A stretch of DNA of 42,333 nt. It comes from Candidatus Nealsonbacteria bacterium. Lineage in GTDB: Bacteria > Patescibacteriota > Minisyncoccia > Minisyncoccales > RBG-13-42-11. Below the pieces are notes generated by a model. It saw only the letters and a program-made list of their open reading frames with translations. It had not been told where the DNA came from and did not search any database. Shown here in pieces: positions 3,735 to 37,277 of this stretch (its first letter is position 1; each line of letters opens with the position of its first letter). The stretch spans positions 1-42,333 of the forward strand of contig JAPLXL010000003.1 of the NCBI GenBank assembly GCA_026396115.1, given 5' to 3'. Both the position numbers and the translations under genes were made by a program.

Positions 3735-3944
3735 ATGAAAAAAGATCAGACTAAAAAAGAGTATATCGTAACTTATTGCAGCCAAGAGCATTTCAAGGTT
3801 TTAGGGTGGTAAAGCTTCTAATTTAGAAGAAGCAATGGATCGTGCCCAGAGGGAGTTAAAAAAAGAGGCAAAATTCTATGAAGTAGAAGAAACAATGATT
3901 GGAGAAATTAAAGATGAAAAAAAGTTATTTTCGATATTAATTAG
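3735..3944 (+). pseudogene. Frameshifted paralog of the small protein at 6699-6923
   Basis: MKKDQTKKEYIVTYCSQEHFKVLGW then a stop at 3810-3812, caused by a 2-bp deletion (GGGTGGTAAA vs GGGTGGGTTAAA in the paralog). It resumes KASNLEEAM... in another frame, with a probable second shift in the A-run near 3917-3923. Confidence 0.8.
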
Positions 3945-6698: not shown

Positions 6699-6923
6699 AT
6701 GGCAAAAAAATTTACTCTTAAAACAGATGAAAAAGATTATATTGTGATCTATGAAAGCCAAGAGCATTTCGAGGTTTTAGGGTGGGTTAAAGCTTCTAAT
6801 TTAGAAGAAGCTATTAAAAATGCGGAAGAAACATTAATAAATGAAATAAAGAAATATAGTGTAAAAAACGCTGAAATAGCTGAATGGAAAGATGGCAGAG
6901 AAATTTCTTTTAATATAGAGTAA
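6699..6923 (+). CDS. Small acidic hypothetical protein (74 aa)
   Basis: Intact ORF 8 bp after the radical SAM gene. The paralog at 3735 supports coding status. Confidence 0.8.
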   Translation: MAKKFTLKTDEKDYIVIYESQEHFEVLGWVKASNLEEAIKNAEETLINEIKKYSVKNAEIAEWKDGREISFNIE

Positions 6924-9550: not shown

Positions 9551-9646
9551 AGGCGAAGAGAACTTCGTTCTCTTCTTCACCTTCGCTTCCATAAATGGAA
9601 GCTCGGTAAGAGATAAATCTTTTCTTTTGCTCTGTGCTATCGCTTG
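9551..9646 (+). repeat. Family I elements: full 57-bp copy (9551-9607) plus a second copy abutting the tRNA-Gly 3' end
   Basis: AGGCGAAGAGAACTTCGTTCTCTTCTTCACCTTCGCTTCCATAAATGGAAGCTCGGT, then AAGAGATAAATCTTTTCTTTTGCTCTGTGCTATCGCTTG. Confidence 0.9.
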
Positions 9647-9792: not shown

Positions 9793-9916
9793 TCTTTTTG
9801 AATTTATCATGTTTTCAACTTTTTTTCAATTGTGGTAAAATTTAGATGATGAGATTTTTGCGAAATTTCATCTAAGAAGCTTCGTAAATTTCTAACGAAA
9901 TTTACTTGCTAAATTA

Positions 9917-13153: not shown

Positions 13154-13299
13154 AGTCGAAGAGGATAAATCCTCTTCTTCGCCCCTCGCTGCGGCTCGGG
13201 TAGTCGAAGAGATAAATCTCTTCTTCAGCCACCGAGCTTTCACGTAGTGAAAGTGAAGGTGAAAAAGAGGCTTGCCTCTTTGCCTTCATTGCGATTCGG
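13154..13299. repeat. Cluster of family I elements between pilB and pilC
   Basis: Copies at 13154-13201 (+), 13202-13227 (+, partial) and 13231-13285 (-), plus a tail fragment. Confidence 0.9.
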
Positions 13300-13320
13300 C
13301 TAAGCAACTACTAAGTAGCT

Positions 13321-16402: not shown

Positions 16403-16456
16403 AGTCGAAGAGGACTTCGTCTTCTTCTTCACCTTCACTTCCTTCGGAAGCTTGGT
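16403..16456 (+). repeat. Family I element (54 bp) directly before ATG 16459
   Basis: AGTCGAAGAGGACTTCGTCTTCTTCTTCACCTTCACTTCCTTCGGAAGCTTGGT. Confidence 0.9.
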
Positions 16457-16458
16457 AT

Positions 16459-17439
16459 ATGAAAGGATTTACTCTTATTGAAACCATAGTAACTATTGTC
16501 ATTTTCACTATTATTTTTGGTGTGGTTAGCGCCTTCATTATTATGGCTTACAGGACTCAGGGGTATACTTGGCAGCAGTCGATGGCCATAAATGAAGCCA
16601 GAAGAGGAATTGAAACTATGGTTAAAGAAATTAGGGAAGCAAGGCCAGGCGATGATGGTTCCTACCCAATTGTTTATGCTGGTGATAAAGAATTCATATT
16701 TTTTGCAGATATTGATAAAGATGGCGCAACAGAAAGATTGAGGTATTTTTTGGGGACAGTGGATTCTGGGAGTCAAGCTCAAAAATGCGTCACTTTTACC
16801 AAAGGCGGAACTTGCAGTGTTAGTTTTTCTAATTTTTTAAAAGGAAATTTAAAATCAACCCAAGTGAAAATTTCAGTGGAAGGAGATTTGGGAGCTTCTA
16901 ATGAATATGTTGAAATTTTTGCTGATGGAGTAAAATTAGAAAATCTTTGCCAGACAGGTTGTACAGATTGTGCTGTAACCTGGCAAGGAACCCAAACTTT
17001 TGATGTCACCGATTTGACAAAAGACAATTCCATTCAATTTTTAGCTGATGCCACTATCCATGTTGATTCTCAATGTAGTTGGGAAGAACCAAATCACGCA
17101 ATGAAAGCCATTTTTGAGTTAAGCTGGAATGAAGAAGTTATTGGAGCCGGCAATGAGCTTAAGAAAGGAGTAATAAATCCGGTGGCAGGATCGGGCGGGA
17201 AAATTACTTATCCTTTAGACCAAGAAGAAGTTACTATTTTAACTTCTTATGTCCGTAACGTTCCGCCAATTTTTAGATATTTTGATCAAGATGGGCAAGA
17301 GTTAATTGAGACCCCTGCTCGGCTTAAAGACACTAAGGTAATGGAAGTTTATTTAATTGTTAATATTGATCCAAACCGGCCGCCTCAGGATTTTGAATTA
17401 AGGTCGGCTGTTCAACTTCGCAATCTTAAAGATGAATAA
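16459..17439 (+). CDS. Minor pilin (PilW/PulJ-like)
   Basis: MKG|FTLIE prepilin motif, KEIREA, C-terminal SAVQLRN. The start is chosen after the repeat. Confidence 0.8.
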   Translation: MKGFTLIETIVTIVIFTIIFGVVSAFIIMAYRTQGYTWQQSMAINEARRGIETMVKEIREARPGDDGSYPIVYAGDKEFIFFADIDKDGATERLRYFLGTVDSGSQAQKCVTFTKGGTCSVSFSNFLKGNLKSTQVKISVEGDLGASNEYVEIFADGVKLENLCQTGCTDCAVTWQGTQTFDVTDLTKDNSIQFLADATIHVDSQCSWEEPNHAMKAIFELSWNEEVIGAGNELKKGVINPVAGSGGKITYPLDQEEVTILTSYVRNVPPIFRYFDQDGQELIETPARLKDTKVMEVYLIVNIDPNRPPQDFELRSAVQLRNLKDE

Positions 17440-18958: not shown

Positions 18959-19068
18959 ATGTTCAATGAATCTTTGATTCATTTCACCTTTGAGTTCAAT
19001 GAATCTTTGATTCATTTCGATCTTCATTAAATTTTCAATTTAATTCGATGTTCAATGAATTTTTAATT
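18959..19068 (+). repeat. Family II palindrome array (4 units)
   Basis: TTC-AATGAATC-TTT-GATTCATT-TC twice, the variant TTC-ATTAAATT-TTC-AATTTAAT-TCG, and one partial unit. Confidence 0.85.
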
Positions 19069-19070
19069 AT

Positions 19071-19119
19071 CTAGCTTCCGAAGGAAGCGAAGATGGAGAA
19101 GAGATTTATCTCTTCGACT
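19071..19119 (-). repeat. Family I element upstream of pilM
   Basis: CTAGCTTCCGAAGGAAGCGAAGATGGAGAAGAGATTTATCTCTTCGACT. Confidence 0.9.
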
Positions 19120-20774: not shown

Positions 20775-21304
20775 AGAAGAAAATCTATTTAACGTTAATA
20801 ATTTTTTCGCTTTTAATTATTCTAATAATTGTTTTTGTTATTTTTCCTCTTTTTCGCGGGATAAAAAATAATTCCAAAGAATTAATTGTTCAAAAAGAAA
20901 AATTTGTCGCCTTGGAGGAAAAAATTACAAATCTTGAAAAATTCAAAGTTTTGTACGCAGAACTTCAACATTTTTTAAAAGAAATTGACAACTTGTTTGT
21001 TGATTCGGGGGTCCCGGTAGAATTTATTAGTTTTTTGGAAAAAACTTCTGAAAAATCTCAGCTTAAAATTGAAATCCTGCCTACCTCCGACAAAAAAATG
21101 GAAAAGGATTTTTGGCCCTTTCTTACTTTTCAAATAACTTCTACCGGTTCTTTTACTAATTTTTTAAAATTTTTAGAAAAATTAGAAAATGGTCTCTATT
21201 TGGTTGAAGTACAAAATGTAAGCATCAGTAAATTAACAGGAGATAATGACATTGTTTCAGATAATGTTAGGGCTAATTTTTCCGTCAAAGTTTTTGTTAA
21301 ATAA
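20765..21304 (+). CDS. pilO: PilO-like protein
   Basis: TM helix, coiled coil, GSFTNFLKFLEKLEN, and synteny with pilM-pilN. Confidence 0.8.
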   Translation: MAIKKKIYLTLIIFSLLIILIIVFVIFPLFRGIKNNSKELIVQKEKFVALEEKITNLEKFKVLYAELQHFLKEIDNLFVDSGVPVEFISFLEKTSEKSQLKIEILPTSDKKMEKDFWPFLTFQITSTGSFTNFLKFLEKLENGLYLVEVQNVSISKLTGDNDIVSDNVRANFSVKVFVK

Positions 21305-21309
21305 AATAA

Positions 21310-21364
21310 TCAATGAATTTTCAATTCATTTCAATCTTCAATAAATTTTCAATTTATTTCGATG
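21310..21364 (+). repeat. Family II palindrome array (2 units) ending in the next ATG
   Basis: TCAATGAATTTTCAATTCATTTCAATCTTCAATAAATTTTCAATTTATTTCGATG. Confidence 0.8.
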
Positions 21365-21664
21365 CTTAAAATAAAATTTAAAAAAATTAAAAAATCTTTA
21401 AAAAATCTGCCAAGAATTTTGGCAGAAAAAAGTTTTTTGACTTTTTTAGGGTTATTTTTTGTCGTTTTTCTTTTGGGATTGGCTGTTTTTTATTATTCCT
21501 ATGTTTTTTTAACCGAAATTTCCGATGAAACCATAGAGGAAGAAAAACTATTGAAACTTGACATGGAAAGCCAGCAAAAAGTTTTAGAGGAATGGCAAAA
21601 AAGAAACGAAAAATTCTTGGAGGCCGATATCAAAGAATATCCCGACCCCTTTAAAGTTGACTAA
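21362..21664 (+). CDS. Small membrane protein in the pilP position
   Basis: One TM helix and a C-terminal DPF motif; follows pilO. Confidence 0.7.
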   Translation: MLKIKFKKIKKSLKNLPRILAEKSFLTFLGLFFVVFLLGLAVFYYSYVFLTEISDETIEEEKLLKLDMESQQKVLEEWQKRNEKFLEADIKEYPDPFKVD

Positions 21665-23395: not shown

Positions 23396-23443
23396 CAGTG
23401 TTACCAATATGTTCAATGAATTTTTAATTCATTTCAATTTTCA

Positions 23444-23854
23444 ATGTTTAATTTTTTTAAAAAACAAAAAAAAGAGCCAAAAGACTTAAAAGAAATTTTA
23501 GAGCAATTTAAGGTTTTAGAAGGCAGTTTTGATAAACTTTCTCTAGAATTTGAGAATTTAAAGAAAGAACACCAGTTTTCGGTTCAGAAGGTTGGAATTA
23601 TAAGATTCAATCCTTTTTCCGAAGTTGGCGGAGACCAAAGCTTTTCTATTGCTTTGCTTGATGGAAACGATGACGGTTTGGTGATTACCAGTTTTTATAC
23701 GAGAGAGGGAAACAGAGTCTACGGAAAACCAATAAAAAATGGAAAATCTCAATACGCGTTTTCTCAGGAAGAAATAAAAGCAATTGAAATGGCAGAAAAA
23801 AGTAGTAGTAATAGATATGATGAAGAATCAAAAAACAACAACTCGGCCACCTGA
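23444..23854 (+). CDS. DUF4446-like protein
   Basis: RFNPFSEVGGDQSFSIALLD...YGKPI. A family II unit (23409-23446) precedes it. Confidence 0.8.
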   Translation: MFNFFKKQKKEPKDLKEILEQFKVLEGSFDKLSLEFENLKKEHQFSVQKVGIIRFNPFSEVGGDQSFSIALLDGNDDGLVITSFYTREGNRVYGKPIKNGKSQYAFSQEEIKAIEMAEKSSSNRYDEESKNNNSAT

Positions 23855-25472
23855 GCCGCAGCAAGAGGGGAAGAAGAGAATTTATCCTCTTCGACCTCCC
23901 GAGCCGCAGCGAGGGGCGGAGAAGAAGATTTATCTTCTTCGACCGCCAATCGTGGTGGTTCTGGGACATATTGATCATGGGAAGACCTCTCTCCTTACCG
24001 CCATAAAGGATTTTAAAATTTTAGAGAAAGAAACCGGAGGTATTACTCAACATATCGGGGCTTACCAGATTGAACATCAGGGTAAAAAAATCACTTTTCT
24101 TGATACGCCGGGCCATGAGGCTTTTTCTCAAATGCGCTCCAGGGGAGCGAAAGTGGCTGATATCGCAATTTTAGTTATTGATGCGGCAGAAGGAGTAAAG
24201 TCTCAAACAAAAGAAGCAATCTCACATATTAAAAAAGCCGGAATTCCGGTAATAATTGCTTTAAATAAAATTGACAAGCCTGAAGCCAATCCGGAAAAAG
24301 CAAAAAGAGAATTATCTCAAGAAGGTTTTTTAGTTGAGTCATTGGGAGGTAAGGTTCCTTCGCTTGAAATTTCAGCTAAAACCAAAAAGGGTATCCCCGA
24401 ACTTTTAGAATTAATTTTATTGGTAGCAGAAATGGAGGAATTAAAAGCCGATTCTCAAAAACCGGGGGAAGGCCTGGTCATTGAATCGTATTTGGACAAT
24501 TTAAGAGGCCCTACCGCCACCTTGCTTTTAACCGACGGCCACTTGAAAATAGGAGATACGGTTGGCACAAATTCAGCTTCTGTCAGAATTAAAAACATAG
24601 AAAATTTTCAAAAAACTTCCGTTCAAAAGGCACTTCCTTCAGACCCCGTGATTATTTTCGGTTTTAATCAAGCTCCTGGAGTTGGTGAGAAATTTAAGGT
24701 TTTTCCGGATTTGGCAAGCGCTGAAAATTATATTAAAACTTCAAAGGGCGGAGAAGATAAATCTTCTTCTTCCCCCTTCGCTGTCGCTCGGGAAGAAAAA
24801 GGAAAAGCTTCGGAAGTTTTAGAGGCAACTGATCAACAAAAGGTTTTAAATTTAATTTTAAAAACCGATGTTTTGGGATCTGCCGAAGCTATGGAAGGAA
24901 TTTTAAACTCTTTTCCGCAAGAAAAGATTTTTTTAAAGATTCTAAAATCAGAAACAGGCAACATTAACGAATCCGATATTAAATTAGCTCTCAGCAGCAG
25001 AGCAACAATTTTGGGCTTTAGGGTGAAGATGGATTTTATTGCTAAAAAGATGGCCGAGCGGGAAAAAGTTAAGATAATAATTTTTGAAGTTATTTATGAT
25101 TTGGTCGAGAGAGTGCGTAAAATAATGGAAAAAATTGTTGAACCGAAAGAATTGAGGACGGATTTTGGAAAAGTAAAAGTTTTAGCTAAATTTCTAACAG
25201 AAAAAAACCGCCAGATTATTGGTGGTAGAGTAACAGAGGGGGAGATAAAAAAAGGAGCTCTGATCGAAGTTTTTAGACCTGCCCGCGACGCAGGTGGAGG
25301 GAGGACAGAAGAGAAGATTGGACAAGGAAAAATGATTAACCTCCAAAGAAACAAAAAAAATGCAGTTTTAATCTCAAAAGGAGAAGAATGCGGGATTTTA
25401 TTTGAGGGAGATGTAATAATTGAAGAAGGAGATATTTTGTTGTTTTACACAGAAGAAAAGAAAAAAGGCTAG
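23817..25472 (+). CDS. infB: Translation initiation factor IF-2 (short form) with repeat-derived insertions
   Basis: GHIDHGKT, GGITQHIGAY, DTPGHEAF, NKID and GEECGI. The ATG at 23817 is preferred over the upstream alternative start. Confidence 0.96.
   Translation: MMKNQKTTTRPPEPQQEGKKRIYPLRPPEPQRGAEKKIYLLRPPIVVVLGHIDHGKTSLLTAIKDFKILEKETGGITQHIGAYQIEHQGKKITFLDTPGHEAFSQMRSRGAKVADIAILVIDAAEGVKSQTKEAISHIKKAGIPVIIALNKIDKPEANPEKAKRELSQEGFLVESLGGKVPSLEISAKTKKGIPELLELILLVAEMEELKADSQKPGEGLVIESYLDNLRGPTATLLLTDGHLKIGDTVGTNSASVRIKNIENFQKTSVQKALPSDPVIIFGFNQAPGVGEKFKVFPDLASAENYIKTSKGGEDKSSSSPFAVAREEKGKASEVLEATDQQKVLNLILKTDVLGSAEAMEGILNSFPQEKIFLKILKSETGNINESDIKLALSSRATILGFRVKMDFIAKKMAEREKVKIIIFEVIYDLVERVRKIMEKIVEPKELRTDFGKVKVLAKFLTEKNRQIIGGRVTEGEIKKGALIEVFRPARDAGGGRTEEKIGQGKMINLQRNKKNAVLISKGEECGILFEGDVIIEEGDILLFYTEEKKKG
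23850..23944 (-). repeat. Two tandem family I elements (48-bp period), in frame in infB
   Basis: They encode RPPEPQQEGKKRIYPL-RPPEPQRGAEKKIYLL before the native RPPIV. Confidence 0.92.
24746..24793 (+). repeat. Family I element (48 bp), in frame in the infB linker
   Basis: GGGCGGAGAAGATAAATCTTCTTCTTCCCCCTTCGCTGTCGCTCGGGA, encoding GGEDKSSSSPFAVARE. Confidence 0.9.
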
Positions 25473-26751: not shown

Positions 26752-26822
26752 AAGGCGAAAAGAAATTCATCTCTTTGAGTGGCGAAGAGATAAATCTCTT
26801 CTTTGCTCTGTGCTATCGCTTG
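26752..26822 (+). repeat. Family I elements: a fragment plus a copy abutting the tRNA-Gly(GCC) 3' end
   Basis: AAGGCGAAAAGAAATTCATCTCTTT and GGCGAAGAGATAAATCTCTTCTTTGCTCTGTGCTATCGCTTG. Confidence 0.85.
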
Positions 26823-27672: not shown

Positions 27673-27710
27673 TTTAGTGAGTGAATTTCGTTAGAAATTT
27701 ACGAAACTTT

Positions 27711-28331
27711 TTAGAGTTTTAGATTCTTTAATATTTTTTTTAAATCATTGGGCAATTCTGATTTAAATTCTTTTTCTCGACCATTTGGCAAATTTATCTT
27801 TAAACGATGAGAGTGTAAAAAATGTCTTTTTAATTCTTTGGGCGCAGGCTGATTTTTGAATCCGTACATTTTATCTCCGGCAATCGGATGGCCGAGATGA
27901 GCAAAATGGGTTCTGATTTGGTGCTTTCGGCCGGTCTTGAGTTCAACCTCAATCAAATCATAATCTTTAAATCTTTGCAATACTTTATATTTAGTAATTG
28001 CCTTTCTTTTTCCTTGAGAACCGGGTTCATGGGCTAGATATACTTTTTGTTTTTTTCTGTCTCCGGTTGAGCGCCCGATTAAAGTTTCAATTACCCCTTC
28101 TTTATTTTTAAGATTGCCGACTATTAAAGCCAAATATTTCTTCTTGACTCTTCTCTCTTTGAATTGCTTTTGGAAAAACTCTAAGGCCTTGCCACTTTTT
28201 GCTATTAAAAGTATTCCTGAAGTATCTTTATCTAATCTGTGAACTCTTTTTTGAAAATCATCGGAGTTTATTCCTGCTGGCTTGTCTATGACCAGCAAAT
28301 TTTCGTCTTCGTAAATAATATTAAACTTCAT
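27711..28331 (-). CDS. RluA/RluD-family pseudouridine synthase, compact, no S4 domain
   Basis: IDKPAG, HRLDKDTSG, TGRKHQIRTH and GDKMYG. Confidence 0.93.
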   Translation of the reverse strand: MKFNIIYEDENLLVIDKPAGINSDDFQKRVHRLDKDTSGILLIAKSGKALEFFQKQFKERRVKKKYLALIVGNLKNKEGVIETLIGRSTGDRKKQKVYLAHEPGSQGKRKAITKYKVLQRFKDYDLIEVELKTGRKHQIRTHFAHLGHPIAGDKMYGFKNQPAPKELKRHFLHSHRLKINLPNGREKEFKSELPNDLKKILKNLKL

Positions 28332-28490: not shown

Positions 28491-30386
28491 TTATATTACT
28501 TTGATTTTTAATTTCGTTGGTTTTTCTCGTTTTGTTGGCGATTTTGCTTTTGTAATTTTAAGCTTTGATGAAGGCGGTTTTATTAAATTTTCAAATTCTT
28601 CCCTTTCAATGGTTTCTTTCTCAATTAAAGTTTTGGCAATTTTTTCAAGCAATCTTTTTTTCTTCGTCAAAATCTTTCTTGCCTGATTTTCTGCGTCTTT
28701 AATGAATTTTTTCACTTCTTTGTCAATTTGGCTGGCTATCTTTTCAGAATAATTTCTTTGTTCTGAAATTTCTTTTCCCAAGAATGCCAATTCTTCCTTT
28801 TCTCCAAAAGAAATCGGCCCCAAAGAAGACATGCCGTATTCTTTGACCATTTTTCTGGCTAATTGAGAGGCTCTTTCCAGGTCATTTGATGCTCCGGTAG
28901 TTATTTCTCTGAATTTTATTTTCTCGGAGCAGAAACCTGCCAGTAAAGTTGCCATTTCTGAAAGGAATTCCGATTTTGTTTTAATGCTCTTTTCTTCCGT
29001 GGGCATTTTAATCGTATAACCTGCCGCTAATCCTCGGGCAACAATGGATATTTTTCTAATAGGTTCCGTTCCCGGTAGAGAAGCAGAAACCAGAGCATGG
29101 CCGGCTTCGTGATAGGCAGCAATTTCCTTTTCTTTTTTTGACAAAACATGACTTTTTCTTTCCGGTCCCAATAAAACCTTTTCAATTGATTCTAAAAGCT
29201 CTTGTTGAAAAATCTGCTGTTTGTTTCTTCTGGCAGCCAAAATGGCTGCTTCATTAACTGTATTAGCCAAATCTGCTCCGGTAAAACCCGGAGTTCTTTC
29301 AGCCATCTCTCGCAAATTAATATTTAAAGCCAAAGGTTTTCCCCGACAATGAATTTTTAAAATTTCTTCCCTATCATTAATATCAGGTATATCCAAAACC
29401 ACTTTTCGATCAAATCTTCCCGGTCGCAAAAGAGCAGGGTCCAATATATCTCCCCTATTTGTAGCGCTTATAACTATCACATTGGTATCTCTTTCAAAAC
29501 CATCCATTTCCACTAAAATTTGATTTAGGGTCTGTTCTCTTTCGTCGTGGCCACCACCAATTCCCGATCCTCGAACTCGACCAATAGCATCTAACTCATC
29601 AATAAACAAAATAGCCGGAGTTACCTTTTTGGCAGTAGCAAATAAATCTCTTACTCTGCTTGCCCCAACGCCAACGAAAAGTTCAACAAAAGTCGATCCG
29701 GAAGTATGAAAGAAAGGAACATTAGCTTCCCCTGCCACTGCTCTTGCCAATAAGGTTTTGCCAACTCCACTTGGTCCCAAGAGCAGAACTCCTCTGGGAA
29801 TTCTGGCGCCCATCGCTAAGAATTTTTTAGGATTTTTCAAAAAATCTACCACTTCTTTTAATTCTTCTTTGGCTTCTTTCAAGCCGGCCACATCTTTAAA
29901 GGTAATTTTTTCTTTGGAATGGCCTTCGGCTCCAAAAAGCCGAGCTTTGGCTTTTGTAAAATCAAAAGCCTGCATTGCTCCTCCTTTTGCTTGTCGGAAA
30001 ATCATCCAGAAGAAGAACCCAAAAACTAAAAGGGGAAGAATAAATAATATGGGCATTAACCAGGTCCAAACATCTTTTTTTTCTTTTGTTTCAATTTCAA
30101 GTGTTTTTAACTTTTCTTGAGTTACACCGTAATTTATTAAAGATTGGGAAAGAGCGGTTTCTGCCTCTTTTACGGAAAAAGCTTTCGTTTCATCTTGATA
30201 AATTATTTCAAGATCATTGTTCAAAACCGTAATCTTTTTTATTTCACCCTGATTAATTTTTTCAACAACTTGAGTTAAAGACAATTCTTTTTTCTTTTCA
30301 AAAGGATCTGAAAATAAGGTAAAAATACTGGAAATTACCAGAAAAATCAACAGAATAATTATGAAATTTTTCGTCAAATTTTTCAT
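28491..30386 (-). CDS. ftsH: ATP-dependent zinc metalloprotease FtsH
   Basis: Two TM helices, GPSGVGKT, FIDELDAIG, RPGRFDR and HEAGH. The start is moved to 30386 because MEARYI is repeat-derived. Confidence 0.97.
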   Translation of the reverse strand: MKNLTKNFIIILLIFLVISSIFTLFSDPFEKKKELSLTQVVEKINQGEIKKITVLNNDLEIIYQDETKAFSVKEAETALSQSLINYGVTQEKLKTLEIETKEKKDVWTWLMPILFILPLLVFGFFFWMIFRQAKGGAMQAFDFTKAKARLFGAEGHSKEKITFKDVAGLKEAKEELKEVVDFLKNPKKFLAMGARIPRGVLLLGPSGVGKTLLARAVAGEANVPFFHTSGSTFVELFVGVGASRVRDLFATAKKVTPAILFIDELDAIGRVRGSGIGGGHDEREQTLNQILVEMDGFERDTNVIVISATNRGDILDPALLRPGRFDRKVVLDIPDINDREEILKIHCRGKPLALNINLREMAERTPGFTGADLANTVNEAAILAARRNKQQIFQQELLESIEKVLLGPERKSHVLSKKEKEIAAYHEAGHALVSASLPGTEPIRKISIVARGLAAGYTIKMPTEEKSIKTKSEFLSEMATLLAGFCSEKIKFREITTGASNDLERASQLARKMVKEYGMSSLGPISFGEKEELAFLGKEISEQRNYSEKIASQIDKEVKKFIKDAENQARKILTKKKRLLEKIAKTLIEKETIEREEFENLIKPPSSKLKITKAKSPTKREKPTKLKIKVI

Positions 30387-30390
30387 TATA

Positions 30391-30595
30391 TACCGAGCTT
30401 CCATTACCGAGTTCCCATTTATGGGAACGAGGTGGAAGAAGAGGGCGAATCCTTCTTCGCCCTATAGAAGCGAATCGAAGAACATTCGTTCTTCTCTACC
30501 CTTCGCTGTGACTCGGGTAGGTGAAAAAGAGGGCGAAGAAAAGTTTTTCTTCTTTCGTCTCGTCTTTGACTCGACGGTCGAAGTCCTCTTCGCCT
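30391..30595. repeat. Compound/nested cluster of about five family I elements upstream of ftsH
   Basis: Copies at 30391-30404 (partial) and 30405-30462 (-), and an outer copy at 30467-30595 (-) interrupted by 30475-30519 (+) and 30532-30575 (+). Confidence 0.85.
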
Positions 30596-30634
30596 ATTTA
30601 AGATTAACAAAAAAATTTTCAAAAATCAAGAATT

Positions 30635-30671
30635 AAAAAACCTTATACATTGAGGAGCAATAAGGTTTTTT
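30635..30671 (-). terminator. Terminator after rpsA
   Basis: AAAAAACCTTAT...ATAAGGTTTTTT. Confidence 0.65.
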
Positions 30672-30685
30672 GGGGTAAAAAGACG

Positions 30686-31834
30686 CTAATCAACCAATTT
30701 TAAACTTATTCGGTGTTCAACAGAATTAATGGAAAGGATTTGAAATTTGTATTTTTCGCTTATTTTTAAGGCTTCTTCCATTTTTGTTTTGGTTCCAAAT
30801 TCGGAAATATGGCAAAGTCCTTGAATTTTTGGAGTAATTTGAACAAAGACTCCGTAATGATAAAATTTGGTTACTTTACCTTCAATCACATCTCCTTTTT
30901 TATATTCTTTTTCAATATCTTTCCAGGGATCTTTTTTTAGGGCTTTCAAAGACAGGGAAACTTTATTATCGGAAATAGAAATAATTTTTGCCTTAACTTT
31001 TTCCCCCACTTTTACAACATTAGCCGGATTTTCGATCAGTTGCCAGTCCAATTCGGATATATGTATCAACCCCTCGATAAATTCAGGACAAGTTATTTCT
31101 AATTCTTGCCCTTTATAAGTCTGAGTCGAAGAAGATTCCTTTTTCTCCACCTCAGCTAACGCTTCGGTAGCTGAAGATTCGGCGGGGAACTTCATAAAAG
31201 CTCCAAAGTCGGTGATACCGGTGATTTCTCCTTTAACCACATCACCGACTTTATAATTTTTTAAAATTTCTTTTATTCTCCCATCTTTTTTGGCTTTTTC
31301 TGATAAAATCAATTTTCCTTGTTTTGAATCTAAATCAAGAACTTTAACTTCCATTTCTTTCCCAACAAATTTTTGAAGTTCTCCAATGATTTTAGAAACA
31401 TCCCCCTTTTCTACTCGAGGATAGTGTTCTGGCAGTAATTGGGAAACCGGTAAAAAAGCAGGGATGCCAAAAACTTCTGCTAAAAGACCTCCCTTGTTTG
31501 TCCCCAAAATTCTAACCTTTAGAGTTTCATCCTTGTCTTTTTGCTGTTTCAATTTTTCCCAGGTTAATTCGTCAGAGGCTTGGCTTAAAGAGAGTTCAAT
31601 ATAACCCTCTTCGTTCTCGAGGTCTATAATTTTGGCAAAAAGAGTGCTGCCAATTTTTGAATTCTTTATTTCTTCTCTGGCTTCTTGAAATTCTTTTCCG
31701 TAGATTATGCCTGTTCCCATCGGCCCCAAATCTAAAAAAACCGCAGACCTTGCTTTGCCGATAATTTTTCCTTCTACAATTTCACCAACTCTAAGAGGCT
31801 TTAAGAGATTATTTTTTTCCAGTAAATCTTTCAT
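30686..31834 (-). CDS. rpsA: 30S ribosomal protein S1 (four S1 domains) with a repeat-derived insertion
   Basis: S1 motifs NKGGL, AFLPVSQL, DFGAF, EGLIHISEL and GLCHISE. Confidence 0.92.
   Translation of the reverse strand: MKDLLEKNNLLKPLRVGEIVEGKIIGKARSAVFLDLGPMGTGIIYGKEFQEAREEIKNSKIGSTLFAKIIDLENEEGYIELSLSQASDELTWEKLKQQKDKDETLKVRILGTNKGGLLAEVFGIPAFLPVSQLLPEHYPRVEKGDVSKIIGELQKFVGKEMEVKVLDLDSKQGKLILSEKAKKDGRIKEILKNYKVGDVVKGEITGITDFGAFMKFPAESSATEALAEVEKKESSSTQTYKGQELEITCPEFIEGLIHISELDWQLIENPANVVKVGEKVKAKIISISDNKVSLSLKALKKDPWKDIEKEYKKGDVIEGKVTKFYHYGVFVQITPKIQGLCHISEFGTKTKMEEALKISEKYKFQILSINSVEHRISLKLVD
31124..31168 (+). repeat. Family I element (45 bp), in frame in rpsA
   Basis: AGTCGAAGAAGATTCCTTTTTCTCCACCTCAGCTAACGCTTCGGT, encoding TEALAEVEKKESSST. 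Confidence 0.8.
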
Positions 31835-31856
31835 ATATCAAGTTTTCGCATAGCGA

Positions 31857-32025
31857 ATCGAAAGAGGATTTCATCCTCTTTCTCACCTTCGTTTCCTTTG
31901 GAAACTCGGTAAACGAAGATGGAAAAGAGATTTATCTCTTTGACTTTAATTTACAATGAATATTGAATTTTTGCAATAGTTGTGATAAAATTAAATATGT
32001 CGATGAAATTACAATTTCATCTCCA
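31857..32025. repeat. Family I elements in the divergent rpsA promoter region
   Basis: Copies at 31857-31910 (+), 31914-31945 (-, partial) and 31999-32025 (+, the GATGAAATT variant also seen at 10881). Confidence 0.85.
31963..31991 (+). promoter_or_regulatory. Probable sigma70 promoter with extended -10
   Basis: TTGAAT-17 bp-TAAAAT, with TG-n before the -10. Confidence 0.5.
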
Positions 32026-32057
32026 AATTCGATTTTAATAAATTAAAATCTCGCTTT

Positions 32058-32711
32058 ATGACTATTTTTTGGCACGGACAATCTTGTTTTCAAATAATAT
32101 CGAGCCAAGGGAAGAACAATCACGTCAATATTGTTATTGATCCGTATTCTGAAGATATTGGTTTGAAAGTTCCTAAACTTGCGGCAGATATTTTATTAGT
32201 GAGCCATGGTCATCATGACCACAATAATGTCAAAGCGGTCGGAGGCAATCCTTTTTTAGTTTCCGGACCCGGCGAATATGAAATAAAAGAAGTTTTTATT
32301 CAAGGGATTCCCGCCTTTCATGATTCATCCTTGGGAAAAGAAAGAGGCACCAACACCATTTATACTATAGAAACTGAAGAATTAAAGCTTTGCCATCTTG
32401 GAGATCTTGGTCAAAAAGAACTAACCTCAGAACAAATTGATAAAATAGGCCAAGTTGATATTCTAATGATTCCCATAGGTGGAGTTTATACAATTTCAGC
32501 CAAAGAAGCAGTTAAAATAATGTCTCAAATCGAGCCAAACATTATAATTCCCATGCATTATCAGTTGCCAAAATTAAAATTAAAACTTGATGGTCTGGAT
32601 AAATTTTTGAAGACAATGGGAATGAAAAAATTGGATTCCTTGCCAAAATTATTCATAAAAAAGAAAGATATTTTACCGGAGGAAGCGAAAATAATAGTAT
32701 TGCAGCCATAA
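32058..32711 (+). CDS. Metallo-beta-lactamase-fold hydrolase
   Basis: WHGQSCF, IDPY, SHGHHDH, HLGDLG and IPMHY. Confidence 0.9.
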   Translation: MTIFWHGQSCFQIISSQGKNNHVNIVIDPYSEDIGLKVPKLAADILLVSHGHHDHNNVKAVGGNPFLVSGPGEYEIKEVFIQGIPAFHDSSLGKERGTNTIYTIETEELKLCHLGDLGQKELTSEQIDKIGQVDILMIPIGGVYTISAKEAVKIMSQIEPNIIIPMHYQLPKLKLKLDGLDKFLKTMGMKKLDSLPKLFIKKKDILPEEAKIIVLQP

Positions 32712-32777
32712 TTTATTATCTTTTAGCAATGGTTGCCACGTGGTTGCTTAGATTAGCTGAGCAATAGCCCGTTTCAG

Positions 32778-33050
32778 ATGAATATCTTACAAAAAATCCG
32801 GAACCAATCGGAAAAGACTCGAAAAGTAATTTTATGGGTGATAGTGATTATTTTTGGTTTGATTTTATTCTTTTTTTGGATAAAAAACGTTCAAAGTAAA
32901 TTAGAAAGTTTTCAAAAGGAAGAATTTAAAGAAAAATTAAATCTCCCGAAACTGGAAGTGCCAAAAATTGAAATGCCAAAGTTTGAAATGCCAGAGTTTT
33001 CAGAAGAGGAATTAAAGAAGTTAGAGGAGACGATGGGAGAAACAGAATAA
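32778..33050 (+). CDS. Small membrane-anchored hypothetical protein
   Basis: One TM helix and a pentapeptide repeat PKLEV-PKIEM-PKFEM-PEF. Confidence 0.7.
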   Translation: MNILQKIRNQSEKTRKVILWVIVIIFGLILFFFWIKNVQSKLESFQKEEFKEKLNLPKLEVPKIEMPKFEMPEFSEEELKKLEETMGETE

Positions 33051-33061
33051 CCGCTTGACGA

Positions 33062-33161
33062 ACCGAGTTTCCGAAGGAAGCGAAGTCGAAGAGATAAATC
33101 TCTTCTTCGCCCTTCGTTGCGACTCGGGTAGGTGAAGAAGAGTACAAAGTACTCTTCGCCT
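33062..33161. repeat. Nested family I pair upstream of gyrA
   Basis: The outer (-) copy is split at GCGAAG|GTGAAG by an inner (+) copy at 33086-33129, with AG on both sides. Confidence 0.92.
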
Positions 33162-33170
33162 AATAAAAAT

Positions 33171-35651
33171 ATGGCGAAAGATTCTCAAAAACAAAATACC
33201 GAGATAGGTCATGTCAAGCCCCGGGAAATCACCGAAGAAATGCAGGAATCCTATATTAATTATGCAATGTCGGTCATTGTTTCCCGAGCTCTGCCGGATG
33301 TCAGAGACGGATTAAAACCTGTTCACCGTCGGATTTTGTATACGATGCTGGAAGAGGGTTTGAGACATACCGCTAAATTCAGAAAATCAGCAAATGTTAC
33401 TGGGAATTGCCTTGCTCGTTATCATCCGCATGGCGATATAGCGGTGTATGATGCTTTAGTCCGTATGGCTCAAGATTTTTCGTTAAGATATCCTTTGATT
33501 CAAGGTCAAGGTAATTTTGGCAGTGTTGATGGGGATAGTGCTGCAGCTCCTCGTTACACTGAGGCGCGGCTTTCAAAAATCGGAGAAGAAATGCTTAAGG
33601 ACATTGAAAAAAACACCGTTGATTTTATAGATAATTATGATGGAACGAGAAAAGAACCAACCGTTTTGCCTTCTCCTGTTCCCCAGCTTTTGTTGAATGG
33701 CTCTTTGGGAATCGCTGTTGGTATGGCGACTAATATTCCCCCTCATAATCTGTCAGAGGTCTGCGATGCTTTAATTTATTTAATTGATAACCCAAAGGTT
33801 GATACTGAGGAACTTTTTAAATTTATACAGGGGCCAGATTTTCCTACCGGCGGCATAATTTATGACCAAAAAGGAATAATTCAGGTCTATTCTCAAGGCA
33901 AAGGACCTATTATTGCTCGGGGTAAGGTTGAAATAATGGAGCAGGAAAAAACGGGACGCCAACGCATTATTATTACTGAAATTCCATTCCAGGTTCAAAA
34001 ATCAACTCTAATTGAACAGTTTGCCAATTTAGTTCAACAAAAAAAGATAGAAGGGATAAAGGATATTAGGGACGAATCTGATAAGGAAGGACTTAGGATT
34101 GTTATTGAGCTTTCTCGAGACGCTTATCCTCAAAAAATTCTAAATCGTCTTTATAAATTCACCGACCTTCAAAAAACTTTTCACTTCAATATGCTGGCTT
34201 TGGTTGATGGAATCCAGCCAAGAGTTTTGAATTTGGTTGAATTGTTGGATTATTTTATCAGCCACAGGAAAGAAGTGATTACCCGGCGGATGAAATACGA
34301 GCTGGAAAAGGCCAAAGAGAGAGTCCATATTTTGGAGGGCTTGCATAAGTGTCTGGCCAATATTGACGAGGTAATTAGAATAATTAAAAATTCAGCCGAC
34401 AGAGAAGAGGCAGAGAAGAATTTAATTAAAAGATTTCGTTTAACAAAAATCCAGGCAAACGCCATTTTGGAAACAAAGCTTTCAGCTTTGGCTAAACTAG
34501 AAAGAAAGAAAATTGAAGACGAGCGAAATGCACTTGAAACAAAGATTAAAGAGCTTACGGGAATTCTTAAAAGTCCTCAAAAGATAAAAGGAGTGGTCAA
34601 AAAGGAATTAAAAGAAATTAAAGATAATTTTGGCGACGAGAGAAGGACAAAAGTTCATATTCAAAAAATAGGAGAAATTGCCGAAGAAGATTTGATTCCT
34701 CAAGAAGAAACAATTATTACCCTGACCCAGGGTGGCTACATTAAGAGAATTAATCCTAAAACCTATAAAATTCAAAAAAGAGGAGGAAAGGGAATTTTAG
34801 GAATGAAGACTCTTCAAGATGATGTTGTTGAACATTTCCTTTCTGCCCAAACCCATGATTCTTTGCTTTTTTTTACTGATTCTGGAAAAGTTTTTCGCGT
34901 TCCTGTATATGAAATTCCCGAAGGTCAAAGAGTTGCCAGGGGAAGAGGCCTTTTAAACTTTCTTGAGATTTCTTCTCAGGACAAGATTTTATGCCTCCGG
35001 ACGCTGAGCAAAAGAGACCAAGAGCAGGGCATTAGATATTTGTTTATGGCTACCAAGAGAGGTATAATAAAAAAAACCCCTTTAACCGACTTTGATAATA
35101 TCAGGAAAACGGGCTTAATCGCTATTTCTTTAAAAAAAGGAGACGAACTTAAAAATGTCCAAAAAACTATTGGCCAGGATGAGATAATTCTTGTCAGCAG
35201 AAATGGTCAATCCATTCGTTTTAAGGAAAAAGAAGCAAGGCCAATGGGAAGAACGGCTTCCGGCATAAGAGGGATTAGATTAAAAAAAGGAGACGAGGTG
35301 GTAGCACTTGATGTAATTAGAAATATAAAGCAAAATGAACAAAAGGTAAAAGAATATTTGGCCGTTATTACCGAAAACGGATTTGGCAAAAGAACCGATA
35401 TTAAAGAATATAAAGCCCAGGGAAGAGGAGGTTCAGGAATCAAAACTGCAAATATTAACCAGAAAACCGGAAACATAACTGCCGCAAAAGTTCTTACGGG
35501 CCAAGAAGAAAACTTAATTGTTATTTCCCAAAGAGGCCAAGTTATCAGAATAAAAATTTCCCAGATTTCAAAACTTTCCCGAGCTGCTCAAGGAGTGAGA
35601 TTAATGAGGTTAGAACAGGGCGACAAAGTGGCGTCGGTTACCTGTGTATAA
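33171..35651 (+). CDS. gyrA: DNA gyrase subunit A
   Basis: [29 protein letters not shown] and GyrA-box QKRGGKG. The start is moved to ATG 33171, after the repeat. Confidence 0.98.
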
Positions 35652-35663
35652 TGCATATAATTA

Positions 35664-35717
35664 AGGCGAAGAGGACTTCGTCCTCTTCTTTATCTTCGCT
35701 TCCTTCGGAAGCTTGCT
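35664..35717 (+). repeat. Family I element (54 bp) at the 5' end of the methyltransferase gene
   Basis: AGGCGAAGAGGACTTCGTCCTCTTCTTTATCTTCGCTTCCTTCGGAAGCTTGCT. Confidence 0.9.
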
Positions 35718-35719
35718 AT

Positions 35720-36244
35720 ATGATGAAGGGAGATTTTCTTAAACCAAACGAAGTTTTAAAAAAATTTAAATTAAAAGAAGACATGATAGCTGCTGATTTT
35801 GGTTCAGGTAGCGGCGGTTGGGTGATTCCTTTGGCAGAAAAATTGGAAGATGGAAAAATTTATGCCATAGACATTTTAGAAGAACCGCTTTCAGTCCTAA
35901 GAGCAAAAGCAAAATTGGCAAAAATTTCCAACATTCAGACGATTCTGGCCGATGTTGAAAAGAAAACAGAAATTTTTGAGGAAAGCTGTGACCTGGTTTT
36001 AATAACCAACCTTCTTTTCCAGTCAGATGACAAAAAAAAGGTTTTAGAAGAAGCCGAAAGGGTTTTGAAAAAAGGTGGCAGGGTTTTGGTGGTTGATTGG
36101 AAGGAAGACGTGTCATTGGGGCCAGAAGAGGGCATGGTTTCGCCGGAAGAAGTAAAAGAATTGGCTCTTGACCTTAATTTAAGAATTGAAAAGGAATTTG
36201 AAGCCGGCCCTTATCATTATGGTTTGATCTTTACTAAAGATTAG
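35720..36244 (+). CDS. Class I SAM-dependent methyltransferase
   Basis: ADFGSGSG, IYAIDI and RVLKKGGRVLVVDW. The start could alternatively be 35651, read through the repeat. Confidence 0.88.
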   Translation: MMKGDFLKPNEVLKKFKLKEDMIAADFGSGSGGWVIPLAEKLEDGKIYAIDILEEPLSVLRAKAKLAKISNIQTILADVEKKTEIFEESCDLVLITNLLFQSDDKKKVLEEAERVLKKGGRVLVVDWKEDVSLGPEEGMVSPEEVKELALDLNLRIEKEFEAGPYHYGLIFTKD

Positions 36245-37012: not shown

Positions 37013-37144
37013 AGTCTTAAAATTTTTATTACAAAAAGTAATTTCTCGAGAGAGTGAACGTCTTGAACAAGAGGATTAATTAATCCTGCTTTCTTAAACG
37101 CCTGTTTTTGGATAGAAAGCAGGATTGATTTTTATGTTCAAAAT

Positions 37145-37226
37145 GTCGGAGTGGCGGAACCGGAAGACGCGCTGGGTCTAGGACCCAGTGGGGAAACCCG
37201 TGAGAGTTCAAGTCTCTCCTCCGACA
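37145..37226 (+). tRNA. tRNA-Leu(TAG)
   Basis: Long variable arm, loop TC-TAG-GA (C33). Confidence 0.9.
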
Positions 37227-37272
37227 CCCGAGCCGTAGTGAAGGGTAAAGAAGAAGATTTATCTTCTTCGCC
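37227..37272 (-). repeat. Family I element abutting the tRNA-Leu 3' end
   Basis: CCCGAGCCGTAGTGAAGGGTAAAGAAGAAGATTTATCTTCTTCGCC. Confidence 0.9.
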
Positions 37273-37277
37273 CACCT

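Follow-up and report, generated by a model that had tools for sequence, protein, structure and literature searches.

The gyrA locus and its nested repeat

The window is the whole of one contig (C8), 42,333 nt long, from a genome of 792,029 bp in 8 contigs with a G+C content of ∼35% and long open frames over ∼89% of its length. Within it, a spacer of 120 nt separates a 90-residue open reading frame (32778–33050) from gyrA, which starts at 33171 and encodes a protein that matches PF00521 and PF03989, and most of this spacer is taken up by a repeat block at 33062–33161. The 90-residue frame itself varies among strains, with 15 nt at 32968 absent in one of them (X8), an in-frame change of length. 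The block is made up of a complete B-type unit on the plus strand that lies between the two halves of a type-A unit on the minus strand (Table 1). The inner unit, read as 33084–33129, is 46 nt long and carries a first hairpin (P1, GAAGAG-ATAAAT-CTCTTC), a short second hairpin (P2), and the terminus CTCGGGT, and the P1 half of the outer unit opens on the plus strand with AGG TGA AGAAGAG. As the preliminary description had claimed, excision of 33086–33131 regenerates one complete copy on the opposite strand, the rejoined flanks (33062–33085 and 33132–33161) aligning to the type-A profile along its length as a full minus-strand unit. The AG that was reported on both sides of the inner copy is likewise present, at 33084–33085 and 33130–33131.

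The composite folds far better than shuffled sequences (z −5.8 as DNA and −6.4 as RNA), and the fold is strong on either strand. The best fold has the arms of the outer and the inner P2 paired with each other around the tip of the inner P1, which is predicted to give a REPIN-like long hairpin beside the outer P1. A promoter and terminator scan of 32700–33300 gave no signal within the block.

Table 1. Repeat units of the window and alleles of related strains (positions in the window; motifs are given 5′ to 3′).
Feature	Position	Strand	Remarks
Outer type-A unit before gyrA, 3′ half (P2 hairpin and ACCGAG...GCGAAG frame)	33062–33085	−	Severed from P1 half by inner unit
Inner B-type unit, complete	33084–33129, equally 33086–33131	+	Boundaries slide 2 nt; nhmmer E = 3e-12, model positions 4–52 of 53
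Outer type-A unit before gyrA, 5′ half (P1 hairpin)	33130–33161	−	E = 6.9e-5 for this half alone
Inner unit of subtype Bi	30474–30519	+	At P1/P2 junction of second outer type-A unit
Second outer unit, P1 half	30520–30595	−	3′ arm split by D-type unit
D-type unit within second outer P1	∼30532–30575	+	Followed by GGT CGA AGT
Second outer unit, P2 with loop insert	30392–30473	−	P2 parts 30392–30403 and 30463–30473
Whole type-A unit in P2 loop of second outer unit	30404–30462		Followed by AAT GGA AGC
Solo type-A unit	31857–31910	+	Directly precedes AAA CGA AGA of lone P1 module
Lone P1 module	31911–31946	−	
Reciprocal nest, B-type unit parted between P1 and P2 by type-A unit	13202–13305	+	Type-A unit at 13230–13286, minus strand
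Two tandem B units	23847–23944	−	In frame as two 16-residue repeats, IF-2 N-terminus
B unit in IF-2	24745–24795	+	In frame in the domain II/IF-2 domain interval; adds ∼17 residues
Empty-site allele lacking whole composite	33063–33163		Joint 33062→33164, single G in place; runs X5 and X8
Solo type-A unit absent	31857–31910		Joint 31856→31911, no duplication; contigs of all four runs
133 nt missing, nest collapsed to single type-A unit	30454–30586		Joint 30453→30587; two runs

Other nests and solo units in the window

The insertion point before gyrA had been said to recur at a second locus some way upstream, with a further copy in the outer hairpin, and both statements hold: the join is identical at 30473/30474 and 30519/30520, and further copies sit in the P1 hairpin and in the P2 loop of the second outer unit. 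The stretch 30392–30595 is thus a nest of four units, in which the outer A unit harbours three others: Bi at the joint, D-type within the 3′ arm of P1, and an entire A unit inside the P2 loop. The reverse relation, a type-A unit within a B-type unit, is found at 13202–13305.

Several further copies lie in or beside genes. A solo type-C unit (31126–31169, minus strand, flank GC TGA AGA) stands in the open frame of a ribosomal-protein-S1-like gene (30686–31834) and is another in-frame copy in an essential gene. A B unit at 37216–37277 (minus strand) directly follows tRNA-Leu (37144–37229), whose 3′ end it touches or overlaps, and units also adjoin the tRNA-Gly genes at 9551–9607 and 26780–26804.

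The window also holds other repeats. A second, A+T-rich family, unrelated to the GAAG units, forms short arrays of small palindromes (TCAATGAAT...ATTCATT) at 18963–19083, 21282–21369, and 23413–23472. A 43-nt inverted pair (9871–9913 and 27673–27715, 88% complementary) beside tRNA clusters may be a further small repeat, and a 56-nt direct repeat (3754–3809 and 6730–6785, 84% identical), which falls in two open reading frames ∼3 kb apart, probably marks paralogous genes.

Anatomy and distribution of the unit family

Units range from 44 to 57 nt, with type A at ∼57 nt and type B at ∼48 nt. Both types share the start A-G-(G/T)-CGAAGAG, the P1 hairpin (GAAGAG...CTCTTC), TTC-N-CC, TTCG, a P2 hairpin, which is shorter in B, and the end CTCGG(G)T; by the two seed alignments drawn from the window, the types are homologous. 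In the type-A alignment, 7 of the 16 predicted pairs are retained through changes on both sides. Searches against Rfam at the gathering thresholds returned tRNAs and no family for these units, and raising the cut-off to E = 1 over 30350–33250 yielded three sub-threshold matches that were set aside as chance. Full-text literature searches of limited scope found no paper on such units in CPR/Patescibacteria, nor any on nested REP-like units.

Profile searches of the genome gave 291 matches at E < 1e-3, which reduce to 254 non-overlapping matches (158 A and 96 B; 187 near full length) with a total of 12,439 bp, or 1.6% of 792 kb. The type-A covariance model found 137 matches in this genome; of 24 further genomes in the same family (0–146 matches each), 18 gave matches, as did 2 of 16 that belong to other families of the order. 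Units sit both in intergenic DNA and in frame within genes: 74 of the 254 matches lie in frames that stay open for at least 50 codons on either side, and 43 of these in frames open for at least 100 codons. The three in-frame units of IF-2, for example, are missing in all seven aligned relatives, a comparison from which a filter had removed 15 of the 22 fetched loci. Units also stand close to gene starts. Genome-wide, 30 of 113 type-A copies have a start codon within 9 nt downstream that opens at least 100 codons (e.g., 16403–16462 and 35664–35725), and in 19 of these 30 the ATG lies exactly at +3, so that the TGA of the flank and the start codon overlap and GGAAGC of the P2 arm occupies the position expected of a ribosome-binding site.

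The flanking motif

When copies are anchored on the 3′ end of the unit (CTCGGT, or CTCGGG with a T or A after it), the trinucleotide Y-R-A begins 3 nt past that end and usually continues as GAAG. At +4 to +6 it is found in 82 of the 113 A copies and in 61 of the 80 B copies, while the other nine offsets give 0 to 12 and the background is 7.7%. TGA or TAA occupies the same position in 17 of 17 type-C copies, nested or solo, scored by eye. The motif is a property of the target and not of the unit, because the empty allele at 31856/31911 retains AAA CGA AGA. Every A unit carries a suitable word of its own, the bottom strand reading AGG TGA AGAAGAG at the P1/P2 joint, and in the nest before gyrA, the inner unit ends at 33129 with TGA at 33133–33135, which is +4 to +6 in the orientation required by the rule. 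Other occupied sites are the unit start in tandem arrays (AGG CGA AGAG), the loop side of P1 in D-type nests (GGT or GGA, then CGA AGT), the 3′ arm of P2 in loop nests (AAT GGA AGC), and one odd nest at C2:77136 (AAG CGA AGG). The flank rule explains both the position and the orientation of the nest. The outer unit before gyrA breaks it, with a right flank of TCG TCA.

A duplication of 2 bp (AG) had been suggested at the ends of the inner copy, and this part of the preliminary description did not survive the wider comparison, in which the junction ambiguity is inconsistent over 21 nests and neither of two empty-site alleles has a duplication. In these 21 nests, whose inner units are 44–46 nt long, the boundary slides by 2 nt in nine, by 1 nt in nine, by 3 nt in two, and by 0 nt in one. 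The T common to both boundaries is conserved sequence, and whether a second letter is shared depends on the inner unit having kept its last base. We infer that the AG pair arises where the AG with which units usually begin meets the AGG of the target, an overlap rather than a duplication.

Frequency of the nests

The junction word that joins the end of the outer P1 to the start of an inverted inner unit (CTTCACC followed by TACCCGAGTCGC, 2 mismatches allowed) was counted 11 times in this genome (G000) and 0 times when reversed, so that a nest such as that before gyrA is far beyond chance. The same word was found nine times in G017 and twice in G013, both of different genera, and was not found in 23 other genomes of the family, where the reversed control also gave none. 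With looser patterns, 22 nests were collected at the P1/P2 joint in this genome, of which 12 have type-C, 8 have Bi, and 2 have other B inner units; the nest before gyrA is one of these last two.

Other places within the host unit are used as well. At least 12 of the 15 D-type copies in the genome occupy the same place in a type-A P1, and six nests lie in a P2 loop, that of the second locus and five more. The subfamilies differ in how often they occur alone: 5 of 17 type-C copies are solo, while Bi in this genome is nested in eight copies, with one doubtful solo copy and none clearly solo. In several genomes of other species, the Bi-type P1 word occurs outside any type-A host.

Alleles of related strains

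Assembled contigs, as opposed to raw reads, of four other public runs were compared with the window, and all four junctions of the nest before gyrA were found in contigs from two other studies, with 0–5 differences. The contigs that carry them (X2 record 5, 32258–33104; X3 record 14, 32687–33115; X3 record 15, 33114–34000) break within the inner unit at 33104–33115, and none of the contigs listed spans the whole nest. This is what an assembly chimera at a repeat would look like, yet the agreement between studies, together with an architecture that is present 22 times in this genome and in other assemblies too, makes a chimera scarcely credible.

Among the joints listed (15 of 43), the sole allele difference at this locus is the loss of the whole composite, and the joint 33085→33132, which would mark an outer unit standing alone, is absent. 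The empty allele has one G where the window has AA, and is therefore not perfectly clean; it is carried by X8 record 28, a contig of 702 nt that is ∼98% identical with 163 nt on its shorter side, and by an X5 contig with 30 nt on its shorter side. At 31856→31911, the empty site of the solo A unit is supported by sides of 21–27 nt, which are short, and the consensus of loose ends in X8 agrees. The third allele is of another kind. The 133-nt collapse at the second nest has 6–8 nt of shared letters at the break (shorter sides of 137 nt in X3 record 9 and 46 nt in X5), and recombination between copies therefore also reshapes the clusters.

More distant gyrA loci were taken from metagenomes, where the best relative is 85% identical in protein and units are present in 6 of 80 loci. 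A solo A unit before gyrA in one of them (L060) was considered as the ancestral state and rejected, since it lies ∼30 nt nearer the conserved N-terminus and is thus an independent event. In an orthologous pair of gyrA loci, 2 nt separate the stop of the upstream gene from the gyrA ATG in L056, and the same gap in L067 is ∼70 nt and holds an inverted B unit and a short P2 with no outer P1, either a partial composite or another type of unit.

Insertion into resident units or copying of a composite

The restored outer copy had been described as direct evidence of insertion. The reading as an insertion is supported, but the evidence is indirect for the inner copy, the sole allele difference among the joints listed being one that drops the composite whole. 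Two ways of arriving at a nest had been offered, self-targeting and movement of the composite as one unit. The first fits better, with outer units that are diverse and inner units that are nearly identical, whereas the allele difference before gyrA concerns the composite as a whole. That allele does not discriminate, because a composite bounded by the ends of its outer unit would be gained or lost whole under either reading.

Comparison of 21 of the 22 nests bears more directly on the question. Mean identity is 0.787 among restored outer units, 0.761 among solo A units, and 0.775 between the two sets, so that the outer units are no more alike than random solo copies, whereas the inner units reach 0.968 (type C) and 0.892 (B type). 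Six nests contain identical inner C copies in hosts whose P1 and P2 stems differ, and the hosts at C4:19312 and C4:34321, nearly identical to each other, hold different types of inner unit. Such a pattern fits young and homogeneous subfamilies that would have landed repeatedly in old and diverse A units. These observations speak against the alternative in which the composite (A-type P1, inverted inner unit, A-type P2) is an extended version of the element and is copied whole, with the nests not being separate insertions, as do the solo type-C copies, which obey the same flank rule, and the solo Bi-type word of other species. Copying as one is nevertheless suggested by the strains that differ by the entire 33063–33163, by the same junction in three genera, by the nested state of eight of nine Bi copies, and by C2:1477 and C4:62479, which have in common an outer P1 (with a D insert) and the inner unit. 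It is also suggested by the triple arrangement of a Bi unit and an A unit in the P2 loop, which is found at non-orthologous places in G000, G017, and G013; two loci with this arrangement (L038 and L039) were tried as orthologues of 30392–30595 and rejected, as neither adjoins ftsH or the S1 gene. On balance, we regard the copying of a ready-made composite as unlikely, and we favour repeated self-targeted insertion from the comparison of inner and outer sequences.

A single origin of the inner copies had also been put forward for testing, and it fails: well-supported branches of the tree force at least four changes between the nested and solo labels. The inner unit before gyrA lies next to solo B copies that share its P1, outside both of the main nested clades (Bi and C), in a tree that is poorly resolved with its 47 columns, in which two true nests (C3:86458 and C2:67072) were labelled solo and some rows from outside the family were included.

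A further possibility is that the units do not transpose at all and are modular motifs, of RNA or of protein-binding DNA, which recombination or slippage between GAAG-rich hairpin arms has shuffled, the nests being products of recombination. The 133-nt strain difference with its shared letters at the break is of the kind expected, and compensatory changes that keep the stems paired, the strong fold of the composite, and the lack of a detected transposase in the genome point the same way. Against it stand the precise presence or absence of whole units with no repeats at the break and the single in-frame units in conserved proteins that are missing from orthologues. In addition, an inversion between the P1 palindromes of two tandem units, rejected by reasoning as the source of the nest, predicts symmetric bulges or the order P1-P1′-P2′-P2, and neither is seen, both hairpins having the normal asymmetry of their bulges. 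We hold shuffling to be quite improbable. The nest before gyrA is probably a two-level nest of non-coding mobile units of 44–57 nt with two hairpins each, in which a B unit was inserted into an earlier A unit by normal target choice.

A candidate mechanism

Under the reading of insertion into resident units, the outer A unit would have come first, and a B unit would then have inserted through the normal target choice of the family, with the subfamilies C, Bi, and D strongly biased to sites of this kind within units; the composite may afterwards have been gained or lost as one block. A rule that recognised TGA or TAA alone would have 8,984 sites outside long open frames to choose from, among them ∼176 A joints, and 0.55 nests would be expected among 28 units against the 22 seen, which means either recognition of the sequence around the TGA as well or copying of composites. 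The units land where the host unit, if folded, would be single-stranded: at its joint, in its loop, and in the arm adjoining the loop. Transposition in the style of IS200/IS605 is proposed because the units have a hairpin near each end, no terminal inverted repeats and no duplication, a fixed orientation beside a short motif, and landing places predicted to be single-stranded, and the likely chemistry would be a single-strand, hairpin-guided cut and paste.

The enzyme for such a reaction would not be a recognisable transposase encoded in this genome. Profiles of Y1_Tnp (PF01797), TnpB, DDE_Tnp_1, and rve gave no match over the cut-off there; the best Y1_Tnp match scored 15.7 bits against a cut-off of 23, in a protein that reads from its sequence as a probable ABC-transporter permease, and the genome has one tyrosine recombinase, which we take to be of the Xer type. 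Genes for Y1_Tnp proteins of 170–285 residues are present in 20 of the 40 relatives searched in the order, including 12 of 24 in the family, and none was found in G000, G017, and G013, the three genomes richest in units. Presence of a Y1 gene does not track the copy number of the units, nor were units found at any of four Y1 loci of relatives (L136–L139). Taken further, the sequence pattern might mean that a guide-like match to the N-GAAG motif 3 nt past the 3′ end picks the targets, that C/Bi, D, and one A subtype have specialised on single-stranded joints and loops, that the family parasitises itself as a safe haven, and that the enzyme is a host protein of replication or repair or belongs to a new class; this fuller scheme is tentative, and we think it has a modest chance of being right, well short of even.

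Comparison with known repeat families

Elements of the IS200/IS605 kind without their own transposase have hairpin ends, no inverted terminal repeats, and no duplication, and they insert beside a short fixed target. The units resemble them in having a hairpin near each end and no terminal inverted repeats, in an orientation fixed to a short flanking motif, in site preferences that differ between subfamilies, and in the lack of target duplication in two empty sites. They differ in that the conserved motif begins 3 nt beyond the end of the unit and not against it, an unusual spacing, and in that no TnpA was found in the three genomes richest in copies. To our knowledge, they are also shorter than any known non-autonomous element of this type. 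Similarly, the units are like MITEs in being short, non-coding, present in high copy number, and variable in presence between strains, but their termini form no inverted repeats, AGGCGA at the start not being complementary to CTCGGT at the end, they lack target duplication, and no parent insertion sequence was found in the genome, DDE, rve, TnpB, and Y1 profiles all remaining below the cut-off.

A likeness to REPIN/BIME doublets had been drawn in the preliminary description, and it stands as far as appearance goes but not as regards the enzyme, no RAYT gene having been found in the genome. REP sequences are imperfect palindromes of 20–40 nt in high copy number, tagged at one end with GTAG or CGTC (Di Nocera et al., 2013; PMC3733652), and there, as here, high-copy palindromic units occur, some of them in genes, and pairs in opposite orientation within larger foldable structures. 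The units share with REPs the short palindrome in high copy number (P1 and P2 hairpins; 254 matches). GTAG precedes P1 in Bi and in some B copies, and GTGG, GAGG, CTAG, and TTGG also occur at the left flank; the GTAG tag may not be general among these units. A RAYT gene flanked by repeats was not found in the genome, nor was one at the four Y1 loci of relatives, where units were absent. The arrangement differs as well, in that one unit lies within another at a fixed internal joint, whereas in REPINs and BIMEs two lie side by side around a spacer.

The third comparison is with the RPEs of Rickettsia, which are ∼150 bp long and form ten families (PMC10969869). According to that source, they are small palindromes that have no transposase themselves, are scattered in a reduced genome, and are often in frame in unrelated housekeeping genes, and the units described here share the frequent in-frame insertion into genes (74 of 254 matches, and the inserts in IF-2). 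They do not share the size of ∼150 bp or the Rickettsia lineage, being units of 44–57 nt on a two-hairpin plan in a CPR lineage, a comparison made by description and not by sequence, and neither site-specific nesting nor a 3′ flank rule is reported for RPEs in the sections consulted of PMC10969869. The family is closest to RPEs in behaviour and to IS200/IS605-type or REP elements in anatomy, and it lacks a defining feature of each.

Significance

The genomes of CPR bacteria are tiny and dense in genes, and they are regarded as poor in mobile elements. In this one, ∼1.6% of 792 kb consists of units of 44–57 nt that have no visible transposase and that lie within essential genes and, at fixed sites, within one another. 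For annotation, the units are a hazard, causing false N-terminal extensions, false open reading frames, and breaks between contigs. The nests give a clean read-out of the ends of the units and of the target rule, and together with a presence/absence hunt for the enzyme over genomes that do and do not carry the units, they make the question of what moves RPE-like elements a testable one.
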